Shown one piece after another: positions 4,545 to 63,668 of a DNA stretch of 64,000 bases. The DNA lies in contig CAYGGK010000001.1 in NCBI GenBank assembly GCA_964349555.1, positions 120,330 to 184,329 on the forward strand. Reading direction: 5' to 3'. Every line of letters starts with the position of its first letter. The first letter of the stretch is position 1. This DNA is from an uncultured Candidatus Saccharibacteria bacterium. GTDB lineage: Bacteria > Patescibacteriota > Minisyncoccia > Phycocordibacterales > Phycocordibacteraceae. Position numbers and translations under genes: made by a program. The notes beneath the pieces are model-generated. The model was given only the letters and a program-made list of their open reading frames with translations, had not been told where the DNA came from and searched no databases.

Positions 4545-4985
4545 ATGTTTCTCGGAGAATATATTCACATTTTTGATCCAAAAAATAGGATTTCGATTCC
4601 ATCGAAATTCAGAAAGGACCTTGGCCGTGTCGTCGTTGTGACGCGCGGCCTTGATAATTGTTTGTACCTCTACTCTCGCAAGGCGTGGGAGAGGGAGGCA
4701 CGAACCTATGCGGCTGAAATAAATGGGAGCGCGGCACGGCGCGGTCTTGCGCGCCTTTTTCTTGCCGGTTCTTCCGAAGTTGAGGTTGATCGATCTGGCC
4801 GGGTGCTTGTTCCCGAGCACCTGAAGTCTTTTGCCTCAATCAAAGAAAAAGCAGTTATCGCTGGCGTCGCTGACCGAGTAGAGATATGGGAAGAACGCGC
4901 GTGGAAGAAGTACACCGCAGGCATCGAACGCGACGCTAACGCATTTGCCGAGACCCTTGATAGTAACGCCAGTAATAAACACTAG
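4545..4985 (+). CDS. mraZ: Transcriptional regulator MraZ
   Basis: 146 aa. Two MraZ/SpoVT-AbrB-like halves (MFLGEYIHIFDPKNRISIPSKFR… and …SGRVLVPEHLKSFA…). Confidence 0.85.
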   Translation: MFLGEYIHIFDPKNRISIPSKFRKDLGRVVVVTRGLDNCLYLYSRKAWEREARTYAAEINGSAARRGLARLFLAGSSEVEVDRSGRVLVPEHLKSFASIKEKAVIAGVADRVEIWEERAWKKYTAGIERDANAFAETLDSNASNKH

Positions 4986-6232: not shown

Positions 6233-8011
6233 ATGCGAGCGCAGTTCCGTTTCCGTATCCGCCTCATTCTTGCGGTCGTTATTTTTGTCGCGCTCTGTAT
6301 CCTTGTGAGACTGTATTTTGTTCAAATTGTGAATGGAGAAGAATACGCGCAGAAGGCCGATCGTCAATTCGCCTCCGGAAGCGGGCGACTCTTTGATCGT
6401 GGGACGATTTATTTCACTCGGAAGGATGGTTCGTTAATCTCCGCGGCGACGCTCTCCAGCGGCTTCCTCGTCGCCATCAATCCGCAAACGCTCACTGATC
6501 CAGAGTCCGCGTACGCCGCCATAACGGCCGTCGCTTCCTCAACGCTCTCACACAAGGCGTTTCTCGCCGCCGCCGCGAAGAAGTCGCAGGTATATATAGA
6601 AGTCGCCCATCGTCTCTCTGACGCTGAAGGACGCGCGCTTGCGACCAAGGAGATTCCGGGAGTACATGTGTTGCGTGAGCGCTGGAGGACGTACCCCGGC
6701 CTCTCTCTCGCCTCGCAGTCTATCGGTATCGTCTCCTACGGCTCCGGCGATATTCTTGCGGGACGAACAGGTCTTGAAGCGATGTATGACGACACGCTCG
6801 CTCGCTCCGGCGACTCGCTGTATAAGAATTTCTTCTCAGAGCTTTTTTCCAATGTCGGGAATATACTGGTTTCTACAAAAGAGGTTAGAGAGGGCGATAT
6901 CATAACGACTATAGAGCCGGAAGTGCAGACGCACCTTGCAAACAGTCTCGCAAAACTAAATAAGCGTTATACGAGCAAAGAGTCCGGCGGGATCATTATG
7001 GACCCAGCTACTGGGGCGATTATAGCGATCGTGAGTTACCCGAGCTACGACGGCAACGACCTTAAGAGTGTTGACCCAGCGAGGCTCGGCAATCCTCTCG
7101 TAGAGCACGTGTACGAATTCGGTTCTATCATGAAGCCTCTCACGATGACTGCGGCGTTTGACGCCGGAGTCATCACTCCGCGGACGACCTATAACGATAC
7201 GGGCTGTATTACGGTAAATACGAGAAAGGTCTGCAACTGGGACCTCAAAGCGCGCGGTGTTATACCAGTAGAGCAGATTCTTCTGAAGTCGCTGAACGTC
7301 GGGGCGTCGTGGATGGCGGCCGAGCTGGGGCAAGAAAGGTTTCGCGCATACTTCGTTAAACTTTTTGGACAAAAGACGGGCATTGATATGCCGAACGAGA
7401 CAGGGGCCCTTCTTGGGAATCTCTCCAAGCCACAGCAGATCGGGTATGCTACTGCCTCGTTCGGACAGGGAATCGCGCTCACACCCGTGCAAATGATTCG
7501 AGCTCTCGGAGCCATAGCCAACAAGGGGGAGATGGTCCAGCCGCACTTGGTAAGCGCGATACGCCTTGATTCCGGCATAGAGCGAAAACTGGACTGGAAT
7601 GAAAAAGTTCCTGTTTTTTCTACGACGTCCACGCGCGAGACCATCGAGATAATGGGGAAGTTAAATGACGAGATCCTCTCTGAGGGAAAAGCAAAGATTC
7701 CGACTATGTCGGTGGCGGTGAAGACGGGAACGGCGCAACTCACCACGCCTGGGGGTGGCTATTATACCGACCGTTTCTTCCACTCATTTGTCGGCTTTTT
7801 CCCTTCGTACAATGCGCGCTTCATTATCCTGCTCTACACGAATGACCCGCAGGGCGTGCAGTACGCGTCGGAGACGCTTACCGCGACGTTCCTTGATCTT
7901 GTACGCTTTCTAATTGATTATTATGCCGTGCCGCCCGATCGTGGATTCGATGAACTCACCACAGGTGGATTCGACGAACTCACCACAGGCGGTCTTCCTT
8001 CTGAAATATGA
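6233..8011 (+). CDS. ftsI: Penicillin-binding protein FtsI-type transpeptidase
   Basis: 592 aa with SxxK (SIMKP) and KTG (VKTGTAQ) motifs. It sits in the dcw cluster. The C-terminus ends with a GFDELTTG x2 tandem repeat. Confidence 0.8.
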   Translation: MRAQFRFRIRLILAVVIFVALCILVRLYFVQIVNGEEYAQKADRQFASGSGRLFDRGTIYFTRKDGSLISAATLSSGFLVAINPQTLTDPESAYAAITAVASSTLSHKAFLAAAAKKSQVYIEVAHRLSDAEGRALATKEIPGVHVLRERWRTYPGLSLASQSIGIVSYGSGDILAGRTGLEAMYDDTLARSGDSLYKNFFSELFSNVGNILVSTKEVREGDIITTIEPEVQTHLANSLAKLNKRYTSKESGGIIMDPATGAIIAIVSYPSYDGNDLKSVDPARLGNPLVEHVYEFGSIMKPLTMTAAFDAGVITPRTTYNDTGCITVNTRKVCNWDLKARGVIPVEQILLKSLNVGASWMAAELGQERFRAYFVKLFGQKTGIDMPNETGALLGNLSKPQQIGYATASFGQGIALTPVQMIRALGAIANKGEMVQPHLVSAIRLDSGIERKLDWNEKVPVFSTTSTRETIEIMGKLNDEILSEGKAKIPTMSVAVKTGTAQLTTPGGGYYTDRFFHSFVGFFPSYNARFIILLYTNDPQGVQYASETLTATFLDLVRFLIDYYAVPPDRGFDELTTGGFDELTTGGLPSEI

Positions 8012-9312
8012 AAAATATTCTAAAATTAATTGTTACCGGCATTCTTGGGCTCGTCGCGCGAGCGGTGATACGTCGATATGAGCCGCGCATCGTTATGGTG
8101 AGCGGCTCGGTCGGGAAGACCTCTACAAAGGATGCGGTCGCGGCGGTGCTCTCTACCCGTTTTTTCGTACGCAAGAGCGAAAAGAGTTTTAACAGTGAGT
8201 GGGGGGTCCCCTTTACCATTCTCGGAGTAAAAAATCCGTGGCACAATCCGCTCGCGTGGGGTTCAATTATAAAACGTTCCTTCACGCTCCTTTTTCTGCC
8301 GAACCACTATCCGAACATGCTGGTGCTCGAGGTGGGCGCGGATAAGCGTGGCGACCTCTCTCGCATACTGCGCATCGCGACGCCCCACGCGGTCGTGATA
8401 ACGCGCCTCCCTGAGATACCGGTGCATGTTGAAGCGTATACGTCGCCTGAGGAGGTGCGGGAAGAAGAATTTTCTCCCGCATACGCCTTGCCGCCTGCCG
8501 CGCCCCTTATTATTCCGGCAGATGACCCATACGCAAGAAACAATGCCGCGCGCATCCCCGCGCGCGTTATGTCATACGGTGTCGAGAGCGATGCAGACGT
8601 GCGAGTAAGCGGCGTTGATTTTTATGAGAGCGAAGGAAAAGTCGCCGGGATGCAAGCGAGAGTGCGTGTAGGTGAAGAAGAGGGGGACATCATCGCGAAC
8701 AATTCTGTCGGCATAACACAGCTCCTGCCGATCGCGGCCGCCCTTGCCGTCGCGCAGGCTCTCGCGATACCTCTCGACGAAGCACTTACTGCATTAAAGA
8801 GCTACGAACCGCCGCCCGGTCGCGGGCGTCTTCTCAGAGGGAAGAACGGCTCAATCATCATTGACGATTCTTATAACTCTTCACCTGCCGCGGCTGAAGA
8901 AGCGCTCGCGACCCTAAAGACGTTCCCGAGGGCGAAACGCCCCTCCGCCGCCGAGGCTACGAAGGGCAGGCGCATCGCGGTGCTTGGCGACATGCTGGAA
9001 TTGGGGCGTTATTCGGTAACCGAGCACGAGCGCATAGGAGTGCTCGCGGATGAGTCGGCTGATTTGGTTGTTGCAGTCGGCATCCGCGCGAAGACATTTG
9101 CCGGGGCGTTTAAAAAGTCTGAAGGTATGCTGTTTGATAGTTCACGCTCCGCCGCGCTTGCTCTCCCGTCTCTCATTCGTGAGGGCGACGTCATTCTTGT
9201 AAAAGGTTCCCAGTCCGTCCGCACCGAACGCATCGTTGAAGCCCTTCTCGCGAATCCCTCTGATGCCTCCCTCCTCGTTCGCCAAGAACCCGAATGGAAA
9301 CGGAGGTTATAA
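8008..9312 (+). CDS. murF: UDP-N-acetylmuramoyl-tripeptide--D-alanyl-D-alanine ligase
   Basis: Mur ligase P-loop VMVSGSVGKTSTKD. It follows ftsI. Its last ~27 codons are repeated twice downstream. Confidence 0.8.
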   Translation: MKNILKLIVTGILGLVARAVIRRYEPRIVMVSGSVGKTSTKDAVAAVLSTRFFVRKSEKSFNSEWGVPFTILGVKNPWHNPLAWGSIIKRSFTLLFLPNHYPNMLVLEVGADKRGDLSRILRIATPHAVVITRLPEIPVHVEAYTSPEEVREEEFSPAYALPPAAPLIIPADDPYARNNAARIPARVMSYGVESDADVRVSGVDFYESEGKVAGMQARVRVGEEEGDIIANNSVGITQLLPIAAALAVAQALAIPLDEALTALKSYEPPPGRGRLLRGKNGSIIIDDSYNSSPAAAEEALATLKTFPRAKRPSAAEATKGRRIAVLGDMLELGRYSVTEHERIGVLADESADLVVAVGIRAKTFAGAFKKSEGMLFDSSRSAALALPSLIREGDVILVKGSQSVRTERIVEALLANPSDASLLVRQEPEWKRRL

Positions 9313-9349
9313 GTCCGCGTCTCTGTGCTTGCCCGCCCGCCCAGTGCAC

Positions 9350-9392
9350 GCACAACTCAGCCCCGCCGTTTTAGGAGACATTGTAAAACGGC
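9350..9392. terminator. Hairpin between convergent murF and SET gene
   Basis: agccccgccgtttta…taaaacggcggggct forms a ~15-bp stem. Confidence 0.5.
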
Positions 9393-9411
9393 GGGGCTGG
9401 CTCCCTACGCT

Positions 9412-10429: not shown

Positions 10430-10531
10430 ACCGATTTGTACTGGCGACACATCGTTGAGGCGCTCCTTGCCAACCCCTCCGACGCGTCCCTCCTCGTTCG
10501 CCAAGAACGCGAGTGGAAACGCAAGGGGTGA
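10430..10531 (+). repeat. Copy B of the murF 3' coding terminus
   Basis: In frame it encodes …DLYWRHIVEALLANPSDASLLVRQEREWKRKG*. It is about 80% identical to murF 9231-9312 and about 95% identical to copy C. Confidence 0.85.
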
Positions 10532-10616
10532 GGACTCCTAACCTACGCGGGAACGGCTCACATGGGAAGAAATGAGCCGTTCAGTGCAAATACTGAAAGG
10601 TACGGAGCGGGCTCCC

Positions 10617-11645: not shown

Positions 11646-11746
11646 CCGATTTGTACTGGCGACACATCGTTGAGGCGCTCCTTGCCAACCCATCCGACGC
11701 CTCGCTCCTCGTTCGCCAAGAACGCGAGTGGAAACGCAGATTATAA
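11646..11746 (+). repeat. Copy C of the murF 3' coding terminus
   Basis: Encodes …DLYWRHIVEALLANPSDASLLVRQEREWKRRL*. Confidence 0.85.
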
Positions 11747-12322
11747 ATCCATCTTTTTCTCGTTGAGCGTATCACGCCAGAGAGTAAGGGCCTCTTGCAT
11801 CTCAGTATCCTCAGGATAAACGGAAAGATATTCTTCCATTAGGGGGATTGCCTTATCTAGCTGGTTAAGCTGGCTATATGCAGATGCGGCAAGTAGAGCA
11901 ATCGCTTTGTCGCTAGGGAAGAATGCATACGCAGATTTAAACTCGTCAGCTGCTTCTTGATATTTTCCAACTTTGTACGCTGCTTGCGCGTTCTGCAGTT
12001 GTTTCTTTGCATGAATCAACGGCCGATTCTTTGGGTCGAGAGATGCGAAAAGACCTGAATCTGTTTTTGTCTGCACCGTGCGACTTGGTATAGCGGCGAA
12101 TGAGCCCGGCTTTTGAACAGCCACAAACTTCTTTTTACTGGAAGAGTTGTAAGACACTGCCGAAATACCAGTGCCCGGAATACCGACACTGGTATATGTT
12201 CCACGACTGTTTACACCAACTCGAGCGCCACGTACCCCGGCACTCAAGCCAAGACCCCCTTTACTCACATTGAGCTTCAATCCGGGAAGAATCTTAAATG
12301 ATTTGCGAAAACGGAAAGCCAT
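11741..12322 (-). CDS. DUF4236-like N-terminus with C-terminal TPR repeats
   Basis: MAFRFRKSFKILPGLKLNVSKGGLGLS motif, followed by TPR-like helices. Confidence 0.5.
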   Translation of the reverse strand: MAFRFRKSFKILPGLKLNVSKGGLGLSAGVRGARVGVNSRGTYTSVGIPGTGISAVSYNSSSKKKFVAVQKPGSFAAIPSRTVQTKTDSGLFASLDPKNRPLIHAKKQLQNAQAAYKVGKYQEAADEFKSAYAFFPSDKAIALLAASAYSQLNQLDKAIPLMEEYLSVYPEDTEMQEALTLWRDTLNEKKMDL

Positions 12323-12728: not shown

Positions 12729-13181
12729 TTAACCGAGAAGAGAGTCCACAACCGCTTTGACGTCGGCGCCGTCGGCCTTACCCTTAAGCTCCTTCATCAG
12801 CGCGCCGGTAAACTTGCCCGCATCCGCCTTCGACGAAATACCTAACTCAACCATTTTTGCCTTCGCGATAGGTACGATTTCTTCACGACTTATTTGGGAG
12901 GGGAGATACGCCTGCAATATGGCGAGCTCAAGCTTCTCCGGCTCTACGAGGTCGTGACGAGCCGCTTTCTCAAATTGCTCTATGGAGTCTTTTCTTTGGT
13001 TAACCGCTCTTTTAACAACAGCCAGTGCCTCGTCGTCGTTGAGGTATTCGTCGGGCTTGCGCCCTTTAGCAACGGCCTCGTTCGTCATGGCGGTTACAAG
13101 TGAGCGGAGAGTCCGGAGCCTTACTTCGTCGTGCGCCCGTAGGGCGTCGGGAATAGACTTCTTAATTTCTTCGTGGATAGC
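12729..13181 (-). CDS. GatB/YqeY domain protein
   Basis: All-helical, about 150 aa, with the typical YqeY layout (…AILQAYLP…ADGADVKAVVDSLLG). Confidence 0.6.
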   Translation of the reverse strand, partial: AIHEEIKKSIPDALRAHDEVRLRTLRSLVTAMTNEAVAKGRKPDEYLNDDEALAVVKRAVNQRKDSIEQFEKAARHDLVEPEKLELAILQAYLPSQISREEIVPIAKAKMVELGISSKADAGKFTGALMKELKGKADGADVKAVVDSLLG

Positions 13182-13206
13182 CATAAGGCAGAGTATACTA
13201 TACCGC

Positions 13207-14256
13207 ATGAGCCTGTTACAGATTTTCATACTTATTATAGTGTTAGTCTTCGTGCAGGGTATCGGCCTCTATTTCATGTTTCGCAAGCGCTCCGCACAGT
13301 CAGAGGAGGGGAGCGGCATGGTGCTCTTGCAACAGCAGATGCAGGAGCTTGCGCGCACGCTCGACACGCGCATGTCCGAGTCGTCGCGCGCGATGCAGGA
13401 GAGCTCCCACAAGCAATTTTCCGAGTCAAACCGACTTATCAAAGAGATCACGCAGGAGGTGACGTCGGTGAAAGAGATCGGCCGGCAGACGCAGGGCTTC
13501 GCCGAGCAATTGCAAAATCTGCAGGACATCCTCAAGAACCCGAAACAGCGCGGCATTCTCGGCGAATATTATCTGGAGACGGTCTTAAAGAACGTGCTCC
13601 CGCCCGGGATGTACAAGATGCAGTACCCATTTAAAAACGGCGAAATAGTCGATGCCGCAGTATTCGTGAGCGACAAGATAGTCCCGATAGACTCTAAGTT
13701 CTCGCTTGAGAACTACAACCGCCTCGTGCACGCAAGCGAGGCAGAGAAGCCCGCATTTGAGAAGGCGTTTGTGAACGACCTCAAGCTTCGTATTCAAGAA
13801 ACGGCAAAGTATATCCGGCCGGAGGAAAACACGATGGACTTCGCCTTTATGTTTATCCCCTCTGAGGGCATCTATTACGACCTCCTCACCAACCAGGTAG
13901 GTGGTGGGGAAGATGAGAACTTAATACAGAGGGCGGCAGGGAAGTGGAAAGTTATCATCGTCTCCCCAACCTCTTTTCTGGCCTATTTACAAACAGTCAT
14001 GCAGGGGTTGAAAGCGCTCAAAATAGAAGAGAAGGCCGTGGAGATACAGCAGAGGGTCGGGGAATTGGGGAAGCACGTCGCCGCGTATGAAGAGTTTTAT
14101 CGTAAACTCGGTGTCTCGCTTGGCACGAGCGTGAGCCACTACAATGCAGGCTACAAAGAGCTCGGCAAGATAGACAAAGATGTTTATCGCATCAGCGAAT
14201 CCAAAATCGACATAGAACCCGAACTCCTCGACAAGCCGGTACTGATTGAGGAGTAA
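13207..14256 (+). CDS. rmuC: DNA recombination protein RmuC
   Basis: N-terminal TM helix, a long coiled-coil, and the C-terminal RmuC nuclease-like region (…FMFIPSEGIYYDLL…). Start at MSLLQIF. Confidence 0.7.
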   Translation: MSLLQIFILIIVLVFVQGIGLYFMFRKRSAQSEEGSGMVLLQQQMQELARTLDTRMSESSRAMQESSHKQFSESNRLIKEITQEVTSVKEIGRQTQGFAEQLQNLQDILKNPKQRGILGEYYLETVLKNVLPPGMYKMQYPFKNGEIVDAAVFVSDKIVPIDSKFSLENYNRLVHASEAEKPAFEKAFVNDLKLRIQETAKYIRPEENTMDFAFMFIPSEGIYYDLLTNQVGGGEDENLIQRAAGKWKVIIVSPTSFLAYLQTVMQGLKALKIEEKAVEIQQRVGELGKHVAAYEEFYRKLGVSLGTSVSHYNAGYKELGKIDKDVYRISESKIDIEPELLDKPVLIEE

Positions 14257-17437: not shown

Positions 17438-18049
17438 CTAGGTTTCTTTGCGGTTGGTGAGCGCGGCGCGGAGGGTCTCGGCGTCGGAGTATTCGAGCTC
17501 AGAGCCGGTAGCGAGCCCGCGGCCGAGTATGGAAACCTTAAGGTGGTCGCGGTGCGCCGCGAGGAGCTCGCGCACGCGATCGCTCGTGTGTTCGCCCTCG
17601 CTGGTCGCCGAGAGGGCGAGGACGACTTCTTTCAAGCTTATCTGCGCAGAGAGGCGTTTCTTTACTGTTTCCAATAATTCTCTTTCACGAACAGAACCTT
17701 TCCCTGAGAGTGTCAACACGCCTCCGAGGACGAAGTATCGCCCGCGATATGTACCGGCGCGCTCCACCGCAGAGAGGTCCTGATCCTTCTCAACGAGCAT
17801 GAGGAGAGTATCGTCGCGTGTTTTATCGGAGCAATAATTGCAAACAGTCGTCGTGCTTCCGCCGTTATAGAAACGCATGCACAGAGAGCATTGGTGTACC
17901 GTTGTGCCTAAAGACGCGATAAGCTCAGCGAGCCTCGCGCGTTCAGCGGCCGAGACGGTCAATAGATAGTAGACAAAACGCTTTCCCTGTCTTGGTCCGA
18001 TGCCGGGGAGGTGTGCGAGCGCGCGTGCGAGTTCTTCTATATGGTCCAT
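17438..18049 (-). CDS. recR: Recombination protein RecR
   Basis: HhH region (LPGIGPRQGKR), a C4 zinc finger and a Toprim domain. Confidence 0.85.
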   Translation of the reverse strand: MDHIEELARALAHLPGIGPRQGKRFVYYLLTVSAAERARLAELIASLGTTVHQCSLCMRFYNGGSTTTVCNYCSDKTRDDTLLMLVEKDQDLSAVERAGTYRGRYFVLGGVLTLSGKGSVRERELLETVKKRLSAQISLKEVVLALSATSEGEHTSDRVRELLAAHRDHLKVSILGRGLATGSELEYSDAETLRAALTNRKET

Positions 18050-22644: not shown

Positions 22645-24342
22645 TCAAAGATTCTCTTTATTTTCTTTTCTTCCAAGTTCTTTAATAATTATTTCCACTA
22701 AGTCCGGGTGGTAGTGTTCGGCCTCATGTCCTCTTGACTTCTGTTTTTCAAACCACCCCGGGTTAGACACCCTATATTTCTCCGCAAAAGATATTATTGT
22801 AGAACCGTCTGCCTTAACAGCACGCCTAAGACTCTTCGCACTTTCCCACCCATCTTTCTTTCCCGGCGTTTCGTTAAAATGTTCTACCATTTTTTCCACT
22901 AAGTCCGGGTGGTAGTGCTCGGCTTTTTGGCTTCCTGACTTCTGTATTTCAAACCACTCCGGGTTAGATACCCTGTATCTCTCCGCAAAAAATTTTATGT
23001 TACGATGAGCTGCCTTAACAACACGCATAAGACCACTTGCGCTTTCCCACCCCTCTTTCTTTCCCGGCGTTTCGTTAAAATGTTCTACTATTTCTTTCAC
23101 TAAATCCGGGTGGTAGTGTTCGGCCTCATGTCCTCTTGACTTCTGTTTTTCAAACCACTCCGGGTTAGATACCCTGTATCTCTCCGCAAAAGATTTTATT
23201 TTACGAAGGTCTGCCTTAACAATAGGTATAAGACTCTTCGCACTTTCCCACCCATCTTTCTTTCCCGGCGTTTCGTTAAAATGTTCTACCATTTTTTCCA
23301 CTAAGTCCGGGTGGTAGTGTTCGGCTTCTACACTTCCCGACTTCTGTCTTTCAAACCACCCCGGGTTAGACACCCTATATTTCTCCGCAAAAGATATTAT
23401 TGTATGACCACTTGCCTTAAAAATATGCCTAAGACTTCTCGAACTTTCCCACCCCTCTTTCTTTTTTGGTACCTCTTTTATGTGTTCAAAATCTGATTTT
23501 GGGACGTTTGGTTTTTTATCGTCATTAACATCGAAATTTTCGGTTAAATACGTAAGCATACGTTCACGCCATTTGCTGTTTTGTCGTAGCACGCTACCAA
23601 TGGCAGGGTCTTCTTCTATATATTTCTTGTATTCGTCTTTGTCTGTCGTATCCAATCTCTCTATACTGATTACTTTTTGTAAAATTTTGTCTCTATCAAA
23701 TATAAAACTCGCGTTACCTTCTTCTTCGCAGATATACACCACTCGGTTTAACTCGGGTATTTCTACCCTGAAGTACGGATAACGCCGCATCATATTATCT
23801 GTAGTTTCTCCCTTTATAATTTTAATATCATCCTCTGTGGTGTCCTCGGCAGGGTCGTTTATGTATATATGAAGGTCATTTTGAAGGATATACATAAGAG
23901 TAGTCAATCTTGGTATGAGGTTCTTCTCTTCTAATCCCTTACTGCTTCCGGGGACGATGGGGTTATTTTCTTTGGAGGGGGGAACAAATACTTCTTTTGA
24001 TACGCCAGTCATTCTCGCTATGTTCCTTTCTAAGTCGTATATAGATTCTTTTCTTTTTGAAATAGCGTCTAGAGTATCGGTTACTGACTGCAATCCTAGA
24101 TACCCCAGAGCGGCATCTTCCAGTTCTTTTCCTATATAAGTCGTTCCGGGATTTTTTTCTTTATATTCAGAAGTTGCTTTAGACACAATGAGAATCAACG
24201 TGTCCACTGCCTCATCGTAGAAAGTATGTACGTTATCTGGGTTTATACTTGTGTGTAGGAGGTTGTCATACTCAACCTTAAGCGAGTTTTTTAAAGATTC
24301 AGGACGGGCTCTGTATTCTTTACCTGATAAACGACCCTCCAT
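22645..24342 (-). CDS. Hypothetical protein with four C-terminal 67-aa tandem repeats
   Basis: 201-bp DNA repeats across about 22690-23493 encode K(K/E)GWES…SFAEKYRVSNP(G/E)WFEKQKS…AEHYHPDLVEKMVEHFNETPGK four times. The ~300-aa N-terminal domain is unique. The gene is AT-rich compared with its neighbours. Confidence 0.6.
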   Translation of the reverse strand: MEGRLSGKEYRARPESLKNSLKVEYDNLLHTSINPDNVHTFYDEAVDTLILIVSKATSEYKEKNPGTTYIGKELEDAALGYLGLQSVTDTLDAISKRKESIYDLERNIARMTGVSKEVFVPPSKENNPIVPGSSKGLEEKNLIPRLTTLMYILQNDLHIYINDPAEDTTEDDIKIIKGETTDNMMRRYPYFRVEIPELNRVVYICEEEGNASFIFDRDKILQKVISIERLDTTDKDEYKKYIEEDPAIGSVLRQNSKWRERMLTYLTENFDVNDDKKPNVPKSDFEHIKEVPKKKEGWESSRSLRHIFKASGHTIISFAEKYRVSNPGWFERQKSGSVEAEHYHPDLVEKMVEHFNETPGKKDGWESAKSLIPIVKADLRKIKSFAERYRVSNPEWFEKQKSRGHEAEHYHPDLVKEIVEHFNETPGKKEGWESASGLMRVVKAAHRNIKFFAERYRVSNPEWFEIQKSGSQKAEHYHPDLVEKMVEHFNETPGKKDGWESAKSLRRAVKADGSTIISFAEKYRVSNPGWFEKQKSRGHEAEHYHPDLVEIIIKELGRKENKENL

Positions 24343-26200: not shown

Positions 26201-27166
26201 TCAGTTATTAAGCTCGCTTCCCCCGTGGAATTTTTCGTGTATATCGCGGAGTCGTTTATTCGTCACGTGCGTGTAGATCTGGGTTGTCGCGACGTTTTTA
26301 TGTCCGAGCAATTCTTGCACACTGCGCAGGTCTGCGCCGTGGGAGAGAAGGTCGGTCGCGTAGCTGTGCCGGAGCGTGTGGGGAGTGACCTTTTTTGAGA
26401 GGCCCGCGAGTACCGCGCATCGGGATATCATTTTCTGAATAGAGCGCGGGGACAAGCGTTTTGCGTCCGCGTCATCCTTGTGTCGGAAGTTTATAAAAAG
26501 GGGAGTATGCACGTCGCGCCTCGCCACGAGATACGTTCGGAGCCATTCGGCCGCCCGAGGTGAGATAAAAATGGTTCTGACATGATTCCCTTTACCAACG
26601 ATAGATAATTCGTAGGTCCGTGTATGACTTTTGTCGTTAAGAAACGAAACTTGGTCCGTATCAAGCGCGACAAGCTCGCTGATGCGCATGCCAGACGAGA
26701 AAAAAAGTTCCATAATGGCCCGATCGCGCAAGCCGTTTAAAGTTGCTACGTCAGGAACTTTCATCATCTTCTCCACATCGTGTACGTCAAGGAAGGAAAG
26801 AGTCTCTTCTGTCTTTTGTTTTGCCAATTTAATTTTTGAAGAAGGAAGAGACTCTATGTCGCGATCGGCGAGATAGTTGAGAAACGCGCGCAGAGCTATA
26901 AGGTAATAGTTCTGGGACTTTTTGCCGAGGTATCCGCCGGAAGGTGTCGTATATTTGCGTGCGAGGTAGAGACGATAATCCCATATATGCTTTGGCGTGA
27001 GTTCGTGAGGCAAGAGTCCCTCGTCTCCATTTTTCTTCAGCCAGCCCATAAAAAGTTGTAAGTACTGCTTGTAATTTTTTTGCGTATTACTCGACAGTCC
27101 TTTTTCAACCTCGCAGTAATCGAGGAAGGGAAGGAGGTGGTTAGAGAGCGATTGCTTGTCGCGCAT
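26201..27166 (-). CDS. Tyrosine site-specific recombinase (XerC/XerD-like)
   Basis: R…HTLRHSYATDLL…LGH…TQIYTHV catalytic box. Confidence 0.8.
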   Translation of the reverse strand: MRDKQSLSNHLLPFLDYCEVEKGLSSNTQKNYKQYLQLFMGWLKKNGDEGLLPHELTPKHIWDYRLYLARKYTTPSGGYLGKKSQNYYLIALRAFLNYLADRDIESLPSSKIKLAKQKTEETLSFLDVHDVEKMMKVPDVATLNGLRDRAIMELFFSSGMRISELVALDTDQVSFLNDKSHTRTYELSIVGKGNHVRTIFISPRAAEWLRTYLVARRDVHTPLFINFRHKDDADAKRLSPRSIQKMISRCAVLAGLSKKVTPHTLRHSYATDLLSHGADLRSVQELLGHKNVATTQIYTHVTNKRLRDIHEKFHGGSELNN

Positions 27167-40551: not shown

Positions 40552-40559
40552 ACTTTTTG

Positions 40560-40642
40560 TGCGCCGGGTTGGATTCGAACCAACGAAGACCGAAATCAAG
40601 GCGTTTACAGCGCCTCCCCGTTGACCACTTGGGTACCGACGC
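40560..40642 (-). tRNA. tRNA-Tyr (anticodon GUA), long variable arm
   Basis: Folded by hand into an 83-nt structure. Acceptor GCGTCGG/CCGGCGC with one G·U pair, anticodon loop CTGTAAA, T-loop TTCGAAT. Confidence 0.65.
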
Positions 40643-40650
40643 GCACCCCA

Positions 40651-41280
40651 TCATCCTATCATTTTTAGTCGATATTCGTCTATCCAACGAATGATTTGCT
40701 CGAAGAATTTCTTATCCGAATAGCGAATGTGCACAAGCCCGTGGACCATACGCGGCCCGCGCCAACTATGCGTCATGGAGGCTTTCTTGATGTAAGGTTT
40801 TGTAAAGTGATTGATTGACAACTTGAGAAGTTTGCACCAAAAGCGCTTCAGATTTTGGATACTTTGTCCCTCGTATGCGTACAGATGCAGTCGAATTCTC
40901 TTTTGATCTATCCCACATACTTCAGAAAGGAATTTCCAAAAAATAAGTACCATGTCTGGATCTGAATTTGCGAAGTCAACCGTCCCTCCTCTTGCTTTAT
41001 AGCCTTCAGCCCAGTACAACATAATCGCCGCTATCTTGAGTTGTTCCTGCTCACTCGTTAACTTCTGTTTCAATTCATATGAAAGAGGCTTCGACTCAAA
41101 TCGAATGCGGTTGGTCTCCTGCGCGGAACGACGAGACACTTTGAGTTTGCGAAGAGTGTAATAGGCCGCGTGAATACTAATACCAAAATGATTGGCCATT
41201 TGTTGTGCACTTAGTCCGTTTCGATATAAGCGAGCCGCTTCTTTTTGCTGTTCCAGTGGAAGCGCCATTTTGACAGACAT
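40651..41280 (-). CDS. HTH-domain protein with LAGLIDADG-like region (possible free-standing homing endonuclease)
   Basis: N-terminal HTH (LSAQQMANHFGISIHAAYYTLRK). A LAGLIDADG-like IMLYWAEGYK…VDFANSD sits mid-protein. AT-rich. Confidence 0.35.
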   Translation of the reverse strand: MSVKMALPLEQQKEAARLYRNGLSAQQMANHFGISIHAAYYTLRKLKVSRRSAQETNRIRFESKPLSYELKQKLTSEQEQLKIAAIMLYWAEGYKARGGTVDFANSDPDMVLIFWKFLSEVCGIDQKRIRLHLYAYEGQSIQNLKRFWCKLLKLSINHFTKPYIKKASMTHSWRGPRMVHGLVHIRYSDKKFFEQIIRWIDEYRLKMIG

Positions 41281-41341
41281 ACTAGAATTATCTCAAATAG
41301 GAGTTGAGAGTCAAACGGACTTATACACAGAAATGTTTACT

Positions 41342-41397
41342 TTAGTACAAGAATGAGGACGCCTTGTTTGCCCTTGCGCACGAGCGCGTAGCCGCCG
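41342..41397 (-). repeat. Diverged duplicate of the tyrS 3' coding terminus
   Basis: Read on the - strand it encodes VGGYALVRKGKQGVLILVLK*. This is identical to the TyrRS C-terminus at the protein level and different at the nucleotide level. Confidence 0.8.
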
Positions 41398-41497
41398 ACG
41401 CAATGCGCCCACTATAGCGGATGCGGCACTTTTTTCAAAATCAAGAACCATGTAAGTTCATAAATGTCTTTCCTCAGTTCCCAAAACCTTCCCATGG

Positions 41498-41541
41498 AAC
41501 TATCCCCAATTTTACGCTATAGCGTTATTTATGTGCTGGTG
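41498..41541. repeat. Palindromic element (core TACGCTATAGCGT)
   Basis: tccccaattttacgctatagcgttatttatgtgctggtg. The first 22 nt are the exact reverse complement of 62964-62985. Confidence 0.7.
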
Positions 41542-41563
41542 CCGACTGGTAGGATTCATAAAT

Positions 41564-42145
41564 ATGAAGAAGGTCGAGGCTGAGGCGAAGGTGAAGCGAC
41601 GGAGACGTGATTTGCACAATATCATTTTAGCAACGATTGCTGTCGCCGGGATTCTTACTGTCGCAGCCGTAGCGCCAAACGCAATGCGCCTCCTTAAAAC
41701 GACCGGCATAGACGCCCGTCTTCGGTATAAAACAAAACGGGTGCTTGGGAGATTAAAGCAGAAAGGTGAAATCGAGTTCGTTGAGAAGGATGGCAAGACC
41801 CTTGTACGGCTTACCGAGCGTGGCGAACAAGCGCTCGCGCTACATGCCGAGCGGCTAAGGCTTGCGGGCGAAAGGCCCAAGAAATGGGATCAACGCTACC
41901 GGCTGGTGATGTTTGATGTCCCAGAAAAGCGTAAGCGGACTCGAGATCTCTTGCGTCGAGAAATGAGAGAGGTCGGTTTCCTTCGTATACAGGACAGCGC
42001 GTGGCTCTACCCTTACGACTGTGAAGAGTTTGTTGCGCTTTTGAAAGCGGACTTGCATATCGGGAAGGATGTACTCTACGCCGTCATTGAATCAATTGAA
42101 AACGATGCGTGGATCCGAAAACATTTTAATCTTCGTACAGATTAA
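41564..42145 (+). CDS. Winged-helix + PaaX_C/Cas2-fold domain protein
   Basis: N-terminal TM helix, a wHTH (…LKQKGEIEFVEKDGKTLVRLTERGEQAL…) and a C-terminal YRLVMFDVPEK…GFLRIQDSAWLY β-α-β core. Confidence 0.5.
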   Translation: MKKVEAEAKVKRRRRDLHNIILATIAVAGILTVAAVAPNAMRLLKTTGIDARLRYKTKRVLGRLKQKGEIEFVEKDGKTLVRLTERGEQALALHAERLRLAGERPKKWDQRYRLVMFDVPEKRKRTRDLLRREMREVGFLRIQDSAWLYPYDCEEFVALLKADLHIGKDVLYAVIESIENDAWIRKHFNLRTD

Positions 42146-42165
42146 GACTAACCGCTTCCCGACAT

Positions 42166-42203
42166 CAGCACAATAATTACGCTATAGCGTAATTATTGTG
42201 CTG
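42166..42203. repeat. 38-bp perfect palindrome
   Basis: cagcacaataattacgctatagcgtaattattgtgctg. It shares a TACGCTATAGCGTA core with 41498-41541 and 62958-62985. Confidence 0.8.
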
Positions 42204-42264
42204 GTAGGGGAGGTAAATTTTGGGCGGTTGATTGGGCGGTCGGTATGTGGGTACTTATTATTTT

Positions 42265-43518
42265 TTATTTCAAAACGAGGATGAGGACGCCTTGTTTGCC
42301 CTTGCGCACGAGCGCATAGCCGCCGGAAAGATCGCCGGGGTAAATTTTTTGGTCGGGATTCTCAATCGTCTGGTCTGAAAGAGTAATGCCCTTTCCTTCT
42401 ATCAGCCGGCGAGCGGCGCTTTTAGAAGTTGCAAGGCCACCAACGACAAGCGCGTCAGCGAGCGGGGAGCCGTCAGCGACGTCTTTCTTTGTGAGAACTA
42501 CGGAAGGCGCTTCGGCGAGTGCCACCGCGAGCGCTTCGCGGGAGAGCCCGCTAAACGGCGTGTCGCCGAAGAGGGCGTCAGTCGCGGCCGCGACCTGCGC
42601 GGTCGCGGCGGGCCCGTGAACTATCTCGGTCACAAGTCGAGCGAGCGTCTCCTGGGCTTGCCTCTCGCCTGGGTTCCGTTGATGGAGCTCCATAAGGGCG
42701 CCAATTTCAATAAGCGACAGGAAGGTATACACCTTCAGATAATTTTCAATACCCTCGTCCGGAAGGTTTATCCAAAATTGGTAGAAACGGAAAGGGGACG
42801 TCTTCTTCGCGTCAAGCCAAACGGCGTTCCCTTCGCTCTTGCCGAACTTTTTCCCGCTCGCATCGGTGACGAGTGGAAATGTGAACGCAAATACTTCTTT
42901 CCCGGCACGTTTTCGGATTAAATCGACACCAGAGAGGATGTTTGTCCACTGGTCGGAACCGCCGATCTGAAGGTCCACGCCGTACTTTTCGTTAAGCGTC
43001 AGGTAATCATAACCTTGCAAAAGCGCGTAGGAGAACTCGGTAAAGGAGATGCTCTCGTCTGGTGTGTCGAGACGTTTCTTTATAGTCTCGCGTTTGATGA
43101 GGTCGTTGACTGTGAAATGTTTACCGATATCGCGTAGGAACGGCAATAGCTTAACCTTGGAGAGCCACTCCGCATTGTCTACCATCTTGAAAGGAATCTT
43201 GCCGAGGATCTTTTTCAGCTGTATTTGAAGCGCGCGGGTATTGGCGACGACCGTTTTTTCATCCAGCATCACCCGCTCCCCCACCTCTTTAGGGTCGCCG
43301 ATCATGCCGGTACCACCGCCCACAAGAAAGACAAGTTTATTACCAGTGTCGCCGAGTCGCCTCATGAGGAGCATGAAAACGAGGTGTCCTATGTGGGCTG
43401 AATCGGCCGTTGGATCAATACCAATATATATAGTCCTTGGCGCGGCTAGTATCTTTTCTAAATCAGTAGACGAGTGTACTGCCAGCCCGCGCGCCTTCAG
43501 CTCTTCAGCTAGAGTCAT
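42265..43518 (-). CDS. tyrS: Tyrosyl-tRNA synthetase
   Basis: GIDPTADSAHIGH (HIGH), KFGKS and a C-terminal S4 domain. Confidence 0.85.
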   Translation of the reverse strand: MTLAEELKARGLAVHSSTDLEKILAAPRTIYIGIDPTADSAHIGHLVFMLLMRRLGDTGNKLVFLVGGGTGMIGDPKEVGERVMLDEKTVVANTRALQIQLKKILGKIPFKMVDNAEWLSKVKLLPFLRDIGKHFTVNDLIKRETIKKRLDTPDESISFTEFSYALLQGYDYLTLNEKYGVDLQIGGSDQWTNILSGVDLIRKRAGKEVFAFTFPLVTDASGKKFGKSEGNAVWLDAKKTSPFRFYQFWINLPDEGIENYLKVYTFLSLIEIGALMELHQRNPGERQAQETLARLVTEIVHGPAATAQVAAATDALFGDTPFSGLSREALAVALAEAPSVVLTKKDVADGSPLADALVVGGLATSKSAARRLIEGKGITLSDQTIENPDQKIYPGDLSGGYALVRKGKQGVLILVLK

Positions 43519-47022: not shown

Positions 47023-47856
47023 TCATCTTGCGATAAGAAGGGCGGTTTCGAGTGAGGTCACTTCAACGATCTTGGATGCTAGTGGGGTCTTAAGGTCCCT
47101 CGCGACGGCCTCATAAGCATCCCAGAACTCGTACACGTTGAATAAGTCGCCGTGCTTCTCCGCCCGATCTTTTACTAGGGTGATGAGGCGAACTTTTCTT
47201 TTAGCAACCAAAACAGCACTGGCGATAAAGATCTTATAGGAAGTAACGCGGTAGTCGCGGTCGGTTCGGAACGCGAGCTCAGAGAACTGGTGCCTCCACT
47301 TCTCACTTTCTTTAAGCAACATGCAATACTGACCGCGTTGGCCCTCGAGCAAGGAACGGATTTTTGCGTCCCTTGGCGGGTTGAGGGAGAGATCCCTGAA
47401 GATGGACAACTCCTCCTTGCGGCGCCTCTCCGCGTCCTGCCTTTCGCGTTTTCCCCGCTCCTGTTTCTTGGTAAGAATTGCTCTTTTCGCCTCACCTGAA
47501 GAAGTGAACCTCAGGTCCTTTTCAAAAAACTTGAGGAGCTTATCGAAGAGCGATTGCAGATTGCTCGTTGCAACAGTTGAATCAGTGGAACTGCCGACCA
47601 AGTACTGTTTGTTGCTTACTTCATTTTCAACGTAGTATTTGACCACCGCATCATAGAGGGACCTCGCCCTCTCAGTACTTAGGTGATACGTGTTGTCTAT
47701 ACCAGTAGCGGTGAACTTCCCCCTCCAGGCAATGTTCCCGGGAAAAAGTTTCTTGAGCTGAGCGATATCACTGACCGATAGACCCGCGGATACCTTAACG
47801 CGAGTCCCTGCCCGAATTCCTTCCGGCCGAACTTTAAAGCAGAACTGTACTTCCAT
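47023..47856 (-). CDS. Hypothetical protein
   Basis: 277 aa, Lys/Arg-rich in the middle, no recognisable domain. Its promoter, leader and first 11 codons are duplicated at 48476-48590. Confidence 0.45.
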   Translation of the reverse strand: MEVQFCFKVRPEGIRAGTRVKVSAGLSVSDIAQLKKLFPGNIAWRGKFTATGIDNTYHLSTERARSLYDAVVKYYVENEVSNKQYLVGSSTDSTVATSNLQSLFDKLLKFFEKDLRFTSSGEAKRAILTKKQERGKRERQDAERRRKEELSIFRDLSLNPPRDAKIRSLLEGQRGQYCMLLKESEKWRHQFSELAFRTDRDYRVTSYKIFIASAVLVAKRKVRLITLVKDRAEKHGDLFNVYEFWDAYEAVARDLKTPLASKIVEVTSLETALLIAR

Positions 47857-47937
47857 GTTCGTTACCCCCTATGTGTTTGTTGAGAACTAGACTTTCTTCC
47901 AAAGTTAATATTACTTAAAAATCAAGAGACGTCAAAT
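47824..47937 (-). promoter_or_regulatory. Promoter/leader/5'-coding repeat, copy 1
   Basis: On the - strand: TTGACG, a 16-nt spacer, TAATAT, then about 45 nt, the RBS agggggt and ATG GAA GTA CAG TTC TGC TTT AAA GTT CGG CCG GA. Confidence 0.6.
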
Positions 47938-48267: not shown

Positions 48268-48475
48268 TTCTCCTTCTCATGGGTTACTTCCCAACATCGG
48301 TTGGAAAGGCACGGTTTAATTCTCTAAAAGCATAGCACAGGAGTTGAAAAATTGTGCAAGCAAAATTAGTAGGTCTTTTGGCAAATTTTCATCAACATAG
48401 ACTAGAACTTCTCTTTGAATTCCGCATCCTTCGGCCCTTCTGCAGGGCCGTCAGGACCTCCATTTTCACCTCCGG

Positions 48476-48590
48476 TCGAACTTTAAAGCAGAACTGTACC
48501 GTCATGTTCGTTGCTCCCTCTGTGTTTGTGTTTGTTGGGAACTAGTCTCTTCCGAAGTTGATATTACTTAAAAGTTAAGAAACGTCAAAC
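48476..48590 (-). promoter_or_regulatory. Promoter/leader/5'-coding repeat, copy 2
   Basis: Same TTGACG-16-TAATAT promoter and leader. It encodes MTVQFCFKVRPE, then diverges and stops after 37 codons. Confidence 0.6.
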
Positions 48591-62235: not shown

Positions 62236-62952
62236 ATGTCTGACGCATTTATGCCGAACAAAGGAAAACGCCTGGACGCTGTTGCGCTCGGCGTGAGCTA
62301 TTTGCGCCTCCCCATTAAAACGCGCCTTATTAACGTCGGTGACGACTTGACGCAACTTCTTGAAGAATATGTGCGACCGCACCTTAAAAACGGAGACATT
62401 CTTTTTATCAGCGAGAAGATTGTCTGCATCACGCAGGGACGCATCGTACGCCGCGATGATGTACGGACTTCGTGGCTCGCGCGGTTTCTCTCGACAAAGG
62501 TGCGCAACTACGCGGGAACGCCTCAATTCCGCGGGCTCGGCCACGGCACCGCGCCGGCGATGCAACTGCTTATTGAAGAAGCGGGATACCCACGCACCCT
62601 CTTCGCCGCCTTTGTTTCGGCGCTGACCCGCCCGCTCGGCATCAAGGGCGCGTTCTATTATCTGGTCGGTAAGCAAGCGAAGTCTATTGACTGCCCGATG
62701 TCGTGGACTATTGAACCATTTCAAGAATATGCAAAGCGAGCGCCCGCAGACCCTGACGGTGTCGCGAGAAAAATTAAAGAAGCATTCGGTGTAGAAACGG
62801 TTATCGTTGACGCGAATTACCGCGGAGCATTCTCGCTCGGCAAGTCAACGCGCAGCATATCGGAAAAACTCATACGCGAACTCCTCGCAGACAACCCCGC
62901 CGGCCAAGACAGCGAAATGACGCCTTTCTTCATCGTTCGCCGCCGACATTAG
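62236..62952 (+). CDS. CofE/F420-0:γ-glutamyl ligase-like protein
   Basis: …GDDLTQLLEE…GDILFISEKIVCITQGR… and …VETVIVDANYRG… resemble the F420 ligase fold. Confidence 0.45.
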   Translation: MSDAFMPNKGKRLDAVALGVSYLRLPIKTRLINVGDDLTQLLEEYVRPHLKNGDILFISEKIVCITQGRIVRRDDVRTSWLARFLSTKVRNYAGTPQFRGLGHGTAPAMQLLIEEAGYPRTLFAAFVSALTRPLGIKGAFYYLVGKQAKSIDCPMSWTIEPFQEYAKRAPADPDGVARKIKEAFGVETVIVDANYRGAFSLGKSTRSISEKLIRELLADNPAGQDSEMTPFFIVRRRH

Positions 62953-62957
62953 CACAT

Positions 62958-62985
62958 AAATGACGCTATAGCGTAAAATTGGGGA
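62958..62985. repeat. Third copy of the palindromic element
   Basis: tgacgctatagcgtaaaattgggga. Confidence 0.7.
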
Positions 62986-63032
62986 TAGTGCCTTGAAATG
63001 TTTTGGAGACTGAGAAATCGCATTCGCCGCAG

Positions 63033-63668
63033 TTAGGTTCGCGTGTCGGACTCTTTCCACTCGATGAGTCTCCCCGCCTTGAGCTCCATGGTGTCGGCCT
63101 TACGAACATGGCGCCAATTCCCCTTTGGAACAAGGTTGTAATGAGGGAGCACGCCCAAGGCCTCAACGATAGTTCTCACTCTTTCTTCAGAGGTTATCCA
63201 ATCGGTGCCGAAACGTTTTAAATTAAGCGGCCGCGAGTAACACTCAAGCGTCTTCTCCCCCGTTTTATTCAAGAACCATTCATGAAAATAAGAGAGCGCG
63301 AGCTCGCGGGGCGTACGATAGATTGGGTCGCGGAACCGTATCGTTGCGTGATTCGTCTTACTGATGGCACCCCAGAAACCGTCACGCTTGTAGAGCGCAA
63401 CAACATGGTCAACATCTCCCCTGCCGAGGCGCGCCGAGAGATTCATTATGAGCGGCGGCTCCCCATGGAGCAAAAGCGCGGCGGCGGCGAGTAAGGCGCC
63501 CTCTGTGCAATGTGCCTTCTTCTCCTTAAGAACTTGACGCACCGACATCTGTGTCTCGTCCTTTTTCTCCCAGTTCATCGGAATGCGGTCCAAAAAATCT
63601 TGTATCTTGATCGGCGTGGAGAGCTCTCGTAAAACACTCTCCTCGCTATGCGTCAGGCCAAACTTCAT
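63033..63668 (-). CDS. Transglutaminase-like cysteine peptidase superfamily protein
   Basis: Putative Cys (AHCTEGALLAAAALLLHG), His (DVDHVVALY) and Asp spaced as in papain-fold or lasso-B2-type enzymes. Confidence 0.35.
   Translation of the reverse strand: MKFGLTHSEESVLRELSTPIKIQDFLDRIPMNWEKKDETQMSVRQVLKEKKAHCTEGALLAAAALLLHGEPPLIMNLSARLGRGDVDHVVALYKRDGFWGAISKTNHATIRFRDPIYRTPRELALSYFHEWFLNKTGEKTLECYSRPLNLKRFGTDWITSEERVRTIVEALGVLPHYNLVPKGNWRHVRKADTMELKAGRLIEWKESDTRT

Follow-up and report, generated by a model that had tools for sequence, protein, structure and literature searches.

A tyrS–tRNA-Tyr junction that appears to stack two alleles through a single illegitimate joint in a bacterium of the candidate phyla radiation

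The end of the tyrS gene is found twice in a stretch of 64,000 nucleotides (nt) from an uncultured Candidatus Saccharibacteria bacterium (contig CAYGGK010000001.1 of NCBI GenBank assembly GCA_964349555.1, positions 120,330 to 184,329 of the forward strand; hereafter, the window). Between the two copies lies a gene for a PaaX_M/Cas2-like protein, and beyond the second copy lie an open reading frame of 209 codons (ORF209) and the functional tRNA-Tyr gene. Comparison with relatives suggests, with a probability that we put at about 0.8, that the window carries one allele of this region (allele A) followed by a truncated second allele (allele B), stacked via one illegitimate joint. To judge from its sequence, the orphan tyrS fragment most likely belongs to the ORF209 allele, not to the PaaX_M gene it seems to bracket. 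The features of the locus, in window coordinates, are these:

42265..43518, minus strand: intact tyrS, 417 amino acids (aa), Pfam tRNA-synt_1b 2e-77
42264..42325, minus strand: copy 1 of the direct repeat, the 3' end of intact tyrS
42265-42280, minus strand: last 16 nt of intact tyrS, with the "class 1" tail ATC CTC GTT TTG AAA TAA
42166..42203, no strand: perfect palindrome of 38 nt, CAGCACAATAATTACGCTATAGCGTAATTATTGTGCTG, lying where tyrS and the PaaX_M gene converge
41564..42145, plus strand: PaaX_M/Cas2-like gene, 193 aa, alternative start 41531, Pfam PF20803 1.2e-16
41469..41544, no strand: PaaX_M left flank, including a half-palindromic site (TTTTACGCTATAGCGTTATTTATGTGCTGG)
41429-41452, minus strand: possible older, decayed tyrS-end relic TTCTTGATTTTGAAAAAAG, 5' of the relic tRNA-Tyr promoter
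41402..41452, minus strand: relic of the haplotype-A tRNA-Tyr promoter, -35 TTGAAA from 41438, -10 TATAGT to 41411 (scan 10/12)
41395..41401, minus strand: tRNA-Tyr stub, the first 7 nt, acceptor stem GCGTCGG
41337..41397, minus strand: orphan tyrS 3' fragment, codons 398-417 and stop, with the "class 2" tail ATT CTT GTA CTA AAG TAA
41281..41336, minus strand: haplotype-B spacer ACATTTCTGTGTATAAGT.. with the ORF209 promoter TTGACT, 16 nt, GATAAT (scan 10/12)
40651..41280, minus strand: ORF209, 209 aa, with an N-terminal helix-turn-helix (HTH), a C-terminal LAGLIDADG-fold domain and an invariant LYWAEGYK motif
40559..40642, minus strand: functional tRNA-Tyr (GTA), variant type GCGTCGGTACCCAAGTGG (ARAGORN; Rfam 53 bits)

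About 19-20 terminal tyrS codons and the stop codon are present again 928 bp downstream. The copies align as a 62-nt direct repeat of 89% identity (41336-41397 vs 42264-42325; BLAST E=8e-15), and either one yields the peptide GGYALVRKGKQGVLILVLK*. A first-pass annotation of this DNA, made from the sequence alone, had noticed the duplicate and placed the fragment at 41342-41397; its true span is 41337-41397, the stop codon being at 41337-41339. The synonymous last codons and the preceding in-frame stop that the annotation reported are borne out, the stop being the TAG within the TATAGT -10 box. All seven differences between the copies are synonymous: six fall at third codon positions, the remaining one at position 1 of a Leu codon. 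Seven random substitutions keep the peptide in 4.5e-5 of 200,000 simulated trials. Chance alone cannot preserve an all-synonymous pattern in an untranslated tyrS fragment, and the pattern (P=4.5e-5) argues that both copies were once working tyrS ends. Judged by their codons, both must have evolved as functional gene ends; the orphan fragment would owe its purely synonymous differences to a history as a functional tyrS end in a different lineage.

The orphan fragment is a genuine feature of the genome. A 121-nt sequence across the junction is identical in contigs of three independent assemblies (L001-L003), and the same gene order surrounds it on contigs of up to 190 kb. Metagenome assembly might in principle have fused co-occurring A and B strains, and the contigs of three relatives (L190, L192 and L193) stop just past ORF209, suggesting strain heterogeneity at this hotspot. 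The overlap at the joint, however, is only 3 nt, far under what the k-mer of an assembler needs. This overlap and the recurrence of the junction in three separately assembled samples make an assembly chimera very improbable.

The relatives compared belong to Ca. Kaiserbacteria/Paceibacterota, within the candidate phyla radiation (CPR), and by the source names of its protein hits the organism of the window falls there too. A scan of a genome collection with TyrS gave four close relatives (L006-L009), none of the window's species, and these sufficed to reveal an empty allele and a distant B allele. Across the relatives the region between tyrS and trpS is variable, with tRNA-Tyr always inside, and three arrangements are seen:

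Empty allele (L007, L008): tyrS, about 25 nt, tRNA-Tyr
Allele A (L086, L089/L090): tyrS, palindrome, convergent PaaX_M gene, half-palindrome, tRNA-Tyr promoter, tRNA-Tyr
Allele B (L093, L094, L095-97, L190, L192-195; distantly L009): full-length tyrS, about 56-61 nt, ORF209 homologue, tRNA-Tyr

The PaaX_M proteins of the allele A genomes are 79-80% identical to that of the window. No second copy of the tyrS end is present in L086 or L089/L090, and no leftover second end in the pure B genomes. The class 1 tail, ..(C/T)T(C/T) GTT TTG A(A/G)A TA(A/G), is found in 5/5 lineages without ORF209, PaaX_M present or not (the genomes L006, L007 and L008 have it and lack PaaX_M). The class 2 tail, ..CTT GTA CTA AAG TAA, is found in 5/5 lineages whose ORF209 is 63-75% identical to that of the window, and is followed there by ACATTTCTGTGTATAAGT and the promoter TTGACT-16-GATAAT; the more distant L009, with an ORF209 of 54% identity, has a third tail type. 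The tail of the window's intact tyrS matches class 1 at 16/16 positions in L089 and L006 and at 15/16 in L007, none of which has ORF209. The tail of the orphan fragment matches the intact tyrS ends of L093, L095 and L192 at 16/16 positions and those of L094 and L190 at 14/16. Over the whole gene, nucleotide identity of the window's tyrS to any compared relative is only about 72%.

The 61-nt spacer between the orphan fragment and ORF209 is nearly identical to the one (56-57 nt in the B genomes) that follows full-length tyrS in L093, L094 and L095. Since tail, spacer and ORF209 all match the B genomes, the three form one contiguous piece of allele B, and since the fragment is contiguous with ORF209 as in those genomes, the recoded terminus travels with ORF209, not with PaaX_M. 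The intact tyrS end together with the PaaX_M gene is, by the same comparison, allele A. A simple tandem duplication of tyrS, which the first-pass annotation had named as the alternative that would refute its own view, fares poorly here. Such an event within one genome, running from tyrS codon 398 to tRNA-Tyr +7 and followed by divergence, would leave a single microhomology joint, as is seen. Its two units carry unrelated genes, though (PaaX_M vs ORF209), and divergence in place cannot yield a tail and spacer identical to the intact allele B of other lineages. The differences, moreover, are all synonymous although the fragment lies outside the translated tyrS. We regard this explanation as scarcely credible.

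The stacking of A and B can be read at the joint. On the minus strand, the sequence left of the fragment runs TTGAAA-16 nt-TATAGT-GGGCGCATT-GCGTCGG and then CGGCTACGCG. Within it, ATTGCGTCGG corresponds to a stretch conserved in L007, L008, L086 and L089, the flank of tRNA-Tyr together with the start of its acceptor stem, and the relic promoter region aligns with the sequence 5' of tRNA-Tyr in the first three of these. The allele A tRNA-Tyr is severed after base 7 and joined to tyrS codon 398, with a 3-nt microhomology, CGG (41395-41397), common to both partners (joint GCGTCGG/CGGCTAC). This is the sole novel junction at the tyrS locus; its left side is collinear with L086/L089 and its right side with L093-L095. 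On its left the fragment is fused to a tRNA-Tyr stub and promoter, which argues that the joint is a scar of illegitimate recombination and not an attachment (att) site.

The functional tRNA-Tyr of the window is identical to that of L093 and L095, which are ORF209 lineages, and the A and empty lineages have the other type, GCGTCGGTGGCGGAGTGG. The two tRNA-Tyr(GTA) types share the acceptor stem and differ in the D arm, anticodon stem and variable arm (L093-L095 vs L007, L086, L089). The variant tRNA-Tyr is not strictly tied to ORF209, a reading that was weighed and given up in view of the exceptions L192-195. Beside the relic promoter, TTCTTGATTTTGAAAAAAG matches the class 1 tyrS end of L007 (TTCTCG-TTTTGAAATAAG) at 16/19 positions, a score equalled by 4/2000 shuffles; it may be a third, older tyrS-end relic from the time when PaaX_M came between tyrS and tRNA-Tyr. 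Rfam scans of the tyrS and murF loci returned tRNAs only.

Two further comparisons bear on donor and recipient. Along tyrS, a mosaic test for the recipient allele gave about 72% identity to all relatives in every segment except the last 18 nt, and since the relatives are equally distant everywhere else, the test is uninformative on the recipient. A conspecific donor, considered from the 43/44 identity of the repeat core, was rejected: L190 also has 43/44, so the core is simply conserved and implies no such donor.

The tail of tyrS probably has a second function. In the empty allele (L007 7240-7290), the TTGAAA of the last two tyrS codons lies 17 nt 5' of a TATAGT box, with tRNA-Tyr +1 another 9 nt beyond that box. 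In this allele the TTGAAA of the tyrS tail (42265-42273 in the window) is thus the probable -35 element for tRNA-Tyr transcription. Such a role would explain why synonymous sites here are conserved at 89-100% vs about 72% gene-wide.

The gene between the two tyrS ends encodes a protein that combines a hydrophobic helix at its N-terminus with a winged HTH and a Cas2-like domain. It had been described as PaaX_C-like and flanked by palindromes. The palindromes are there, and the domain is PaaX_M (PF20803, 1.2e-16): Pfam detects PaaX_M alone in the 193-aa protein and gives no match to PaaX_C. Compared with PaaX family regulators (winged HTH, PaaX_M and PaaX_C), it shares one domain and is not a full PaaX. 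We infer from its sequence that the 38-nt palindrome is an operator and/or a bidirectional terminator. A homologous palindrome occupies the corresponding position in L086 and L089, and related sites bracket the window's gene (41512-41540 / 42177-42205). Homologues of the protein form 399 clusters, the nearest (79-80%) being likewise convergent to tyrS. All those examined are bracketed by two imperfect palindromes with an invariant GCTATAGC core and arms that vary between paralogues. The paired palindromes are identical over 39 nt in L182-189 (e.g. L183 3941-3979 / 4606-4644) and over 36 nt in L178-180 (L178 3943-3978 / 4587-4622).

The PaaX_M gene and its palindromes might themselves be a mobile cassette that integrates at the tyrS 3' end with a terminus of its own, by a site-specific or Campbell-type event, the native end being displaced downstream. 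This is close to the first-pass view of an element that enters the 3' ends of essential genes and restores the terminus; on such a model every occupied site would be bracketed by the repeat. The topology is consistent with it. The genes are patchily distributed over at least four contexts (tyrS, a class II aminoacyl-tRNA synthetase gene, an aminotransferase/pilin region of the same genome, and clpP), always with paired, near-identical palindromic sites of 29-39 nt, and a solo copy of the left flank stands at 62951-63017. An integrating circle made up of 44-nt core, class 1 tail, PaaX_M and tRNA stub could give the exact product by homology, and the decayed tyrS-end-like sequence (16/19) lies beyond the cassette, beside the tRNA promoter. 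Against it, the cassette sits at this very site in L086 and L089/L090 with no tyrS repeat, and the tail on tyrS is an ordinary type found in PaaX_M-free genomes too; neither regeneration of the terminus nor regular bracketing agrees with these genomes. No duplicate of a neighbouring gene's end was found at the other PaaX_M loci examined, and in L178 and L182-184 the cassette's own palindromic sites are the sole repeats. The unit encodes the PaaX_M protein only, no recombinase, and the one tyrosine recombinase of the window (26201..27166), 15 kb off, is of XerC/D architecture. The left edge of the fragment, finally, is a tRNA stub and no boundary common to other insertions, and the cargo at murF, described below, is unrelated (SET, membrane protein, kinase, GFA). 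Integration of a PaaX_M cassette is thus an improbable source of the repeat. The unit may be a regulatory module complete in itself, or else a mobile cassette; it leaves the tyrS fragment unexplained.

Some further observations concern the PaaX_M unit. The solo copy of its left flank with the palindromic site (62951-63017) is inverted and 87% identical over 69 nt. It sits precisely between a convergent F420-ligase-like gene (62236..62952), whose stop codon one arm overlaps, and an uncharacterized gene (63033..63668). It could be the remnant of a lost cassette, a copy resembling a miniature inverted-repeat transposable element, or a bidirectional terminator. PaaX_M genes are convergent to an aminoacyl-tRNA synthetase gene in several loci. 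The class II synthetase gene is in two pieces in L182 (4826-6063) vs L183 4674-6065, and in L088 (3742-4623) it is called as short fragments; these split calls may be frameshifts or decay beside the cassette.

Gene-end relics comparable to the tyrS fragment occur at other places in the window:

9228..9316, plus strand: murF 3' end, copy 1, ending ..EWKRRL*
10431..10530, plus strand: murF-end relic, copy 2, with its own in-frame stop, ..EWKRKG*
11646..11750, plus strand: murF-end relic, copy 3, ..EWKRRL*
48471..48589, minus strand: relic of the 5' region of a 277-aa gene, promoter and first 12 codons, MTVQFCFKVRPE, downstream of dnaK

The first-pass annotation held the process to be recurrent, at the 3' ends of essential genes. 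Recurrence holds: murF (8008..9312) has three end copies, each with an in-frame stop, and the same synonymous excess. Between copies 1 and 3 there are 15 differences, 13 of them at third codon positions, with two amino-acid changes, and 0/100,000 random trials gave so few. The restriction to 3' ends of essential genes does not hold, since the duplication beside dnaK is of a 5' end around a small insert (intact copy of the duplicated region at 47822-47936), and the 277-aa gene concerned (47023..47856) is of unassigned function and not known to be essential. In relatives the rmuC 3' end is duplicated once (L156, L103) or twice (L160), and the rmuC cargo of L156 adjoins an unduplicated rmuC in L163. 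The cargo between the murF copies (SET, a membrane protein, an AAA_33/zeta-like kinase, GFA) is unrelated to PaaX_M. Eighty related murF loci keep the frame PBP-murF-[0.45-3.5 kb variable]-YqeY-like-rmuC (PBP, penicillin-binding protein), and the window's cargo genes are in 0/80 of them, so the matching of alleles carried out for tyrS is not repeatable at murF. Copies 2 and 3 have a further 16-22 nt in common, just before the murF homology starts, which fits an older joint reused in unequal exchange between strains of different cargo. All the relics lie at hypervariable hotspots.

The same hotspots hold other repeats. The rmuC relics of L160 (8399-8470, 8891-8960) and L103 (5072-5140) have a similar preceding sequence, TTTTGATATGC(C/T)GGAG, with a hairpin such as ACATAGG..CCTATGT. 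Two hairpin elements, AACGGCTCACATGGGAAGAAATGAGCCGTT and CCCCGCCGTTTTAGGAGA..TAAAACGGCGGGG, follow murF copies 2 and 1, respectively, in the window and also lie downstream of murF in distant relatives (window 9358-9399, 10552-10601; L135 6483-6531, 6581-6662; L115 7063-7103), with no Rfam match. These two short hairpins 3' of copies 1 and 2 are the only parts that match the murF-downstream region of L135. Three relatives carry inverted repeats of 98-99% identity and 130-180 nt around 1.4-2.3 kb in this hotspot: L125 (6668-6800/8236-8368), L173 (5684-5814/7230-7360) and L135 (6271-6451/8756-8937 and 8933-9062/10505-10634), where one arm begins at the murF stop codon. In L174 (murF 122-1360; 1563-1709) the C-terminal 49 codons of murF recur inverted 200 nt downstream with 59% aa identity; at the end of a short contig, this copy may be real or an assembly effect. 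Elsewhere in the window, a 565-aa gene (22645..24342), with no Pfam match, contains a tandem array (22683-23464) of three to four units, each about 200 nt long and 85-87% identical.

The stacking of A and B at tyrS could have arisen if DNA of a relative with the other allele were taken up and recombined by homology on one side and microhomology on the other. The window encodes ComEC, RecR (17438..18049), RmuC (12982..14256) and the XerC/D-like tyrosine recombinase (26201..27166), and the first three make DNA uptake plausible as far as gene content goes. ComEC (57201-60114) is in two overlapping open reading frames, one with Competence and DUF4131 domains and the next with metallo-beta-lactamase and lamin-tail domains. 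Once formed, relics would act as homology for unequal exchange, which explains the three-copy array at murF.

What began the exchange at tyrS is a separate matter. The trigger that we prefer, tentatively and at somewhat less than an even chance, is a double-strand break made by ORF209 near the 5' end of the resident tRNA-Tyr, with B entering A. In such a course tRNA-Tyr would provide the right-hand homology, and repair would copy the B allele leftward, through ORF209 and 60 nt into tyrS. The left tyrS homology would be 0.9 kb off, beyond PaaX_M, and the copied end would be captured by microhomology. This course is favoured because the joint lies within about 15 nt of the ORF209/tRNA-Tyr border in allele B. 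That ORF209, a putative nuclease, made the break is plausible. CPR bacteria are known to hold LAGLIDADG endonucleases in rRNA insertions (PMC11270868). A broader proposal goes further: ORF209 would be an active, free-standing chromosomal LAGLIDADG homing endonuclease of the tyrS–tRNA-Tyr junction in Paceibacteria, carrying a recoded tyrS terminus and sometimes its own tRNA-Tyr variant, with the gene-end relics as footprints of exchange and PaaX_M as a second kind of cassette. Taken as a whole, we consider this doubtful.

The same stacked product could also follow from homology-facilitated illegitimate recombination after DNA uptake, with ORF209 as a domesticated DNA-binding protein and not a nuclease. 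Relics at murF, by dnaK and at rmuC in relatives occur with no nuclease gene nearby, ComEC is present, and the microhomology at the joint is 3 nt long and GC-rich. The evolutionary rate of ORF209, which is about that of TyrS, its kept position and its operator-like upstream 40 nt agree with such a role. This route leaves unexplained, however, that the joint falls within about 15 nt of the ORF209/tRNA-Tyr border and that the recoded tyrS codons constantly accompany ORF209. It is a serious possibility, if one to which we would not give even odds.

Several results weigh against the stacking of A and B, the break by ORF209 or both. Searches with ORF209 gave no LAGLIDADG family in a Pfam scan, no match in the PDB with Foldseek, and no significant hhalign result against an approximate I-CreI sequence. 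ORF209 is conserved among lineages at 73-75% aa identity vs about 80% for TyrS, that is, no better, which fits a long-resident and possibly domesticated DNA-binding protein. L192-195 combine ORF209 with an A-like tRNA-Tyr D arm. The murF and dnaK relics have no nuclease gene nearby, so the general process needs no nuclease. Across three lineages, the rmuC relics have left edges within about 25 nt of one another, which is unexpected for random breakpoints. No pure A or pure B allele was found in a conspecific genome. Three routes, namely B DNA into an A chromosome, A into B, and a small circle via the 44-nt core, would give the same product; as tyrS is equally distant from all relatives, the direction of transfer is indistinguishable.

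The closest described analogues, by comparison of arrangement, appear to be the mobile open reading frames (mORFs) of fungal mitochondria, of which atp6 of Allomyces macrogynus gives an example. In these, LAGLIDADG or GIY-YIG genes enter the 3' end of atp6, atp9, cox2 or nad3 with a foreign C-terminus (PMC3630166). The native C-terminus stays downstream, and the differences between the copies are largely synonymous (Glomus sp., PMC3630166); C-terminal duplications also stand beside endonuclease reading frames in Endoconidiophora (PMC6279837). The shared traits are a LAGLIDADG-fold gene directly 3' of a conserved housekeeping gene, with its own version of the last codons, and two copies of the C-terminus whose mainly synonymous differences are ascribed to transfer from another lineage. 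The present case differs in being on the chromosome of a CPR bacterium, not in a mitochondrion. Pure B genomes lack the second copy, allele B resembling such an element minus the leftover. The order in the window is also reversed: the orphan copy, 5' of ORF209, is of the carried-in type and is split from tyrS by an unrelated gene. ORF209, for its part, has an extra N-terminal HTH and no Pfam LAGLIDADG match, and its role as an endonuclease is putative.

Other systems share parts of the pattern. The seg and mob genes of phage T4 are free-standing homing endonuclease genes, SegB lying in the T4 tRNA gene region. Nuclease genes of phages sit at the borders of genetic exchange (PMC10055350). Like ORF209, such free-standing genes are intergenic and beside conserved genes, with co-travelling flanking variants, a mosaic border and a tRNA neighbour; unlike it, they are mostly GIY-YIG or HNH and spread in co-infection, whereas the ORF209 family looks long resident in cells. 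Homology-facilitated illegitimate recombination has been described in Acinetobacter, Pseudomonas stutzeri and Streptococcus pneumoniae. It is an outcome of transformation experiments (discussed in PMC6382021) and shares with the tyrS locus one homologous anchor, one joint at a GC-rich microhomology of 3-10 nt, and foreign DNA trapped by a conserved gene, comEC being present here. It is known from laboratory crosses, while at tyrS it would be read from natural alleles, with both parental arrangements in relatives. Tandem accretion of integrative elements likewise gives direct repeats of a gene 3' end that bracket an insert, and multi-unit arrays (murF; rmuC in L160). The present units differ in that no integrase lies in or beside them and the repeat edge is fused to a tRNA stub; the same cassette occurs elsewhere without repeats, and one case is at a 5' end. 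WhiA is a transcription factor with two degenerate LAGLIDADG domains and an HTH. It shares fold and HTH with ORF209 and is a possible model for a non-cutting, DNA-binding role; ORF209 differs in its single LAGLIDADG domain, N-terminal HTH and the invariant acidic residue of its motif, E92.

CPR bacteria have tiny genomes and cannot be cultured alone, and to our knowledge almost nothing is known of how they exchange genes. The tyrS locus would be a readable record of such exchange, with both parental arrangements extant and the joint legible to the nucleotide. It suggests that the gene content of fixed hotspots between housekeeping genes is reshuffled when lineages recombine. A practical marker of these events in metagenomes could then be short relics of gene ends that stay in frame and differ by synonymous changes alone, and in annotation such fragments should be taken neither for pseudogenes of simple duplication nor for att sites. 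ORF209 represents an unannotated family with an HTH and a LAGLIDADG fold, always between tyrS and tRNA-Tyr, and, if active, would act as a homing endonuclease of the chromosome whose target is defined. Were the broader proposal true, ORF209 would be a cellular counterpart of the fungal mitochondrial mobile open reading frames, and the PaaX_M/Cas2-like genes with their flanking palindromes of 29-39 nt could be a second, undescribed kind of mobile cassette. The relics at murF, dnaK, rmuC and tyrS would then be footprints of a frequent exchange of small cassettes between CPR strains at fixed hotspots.

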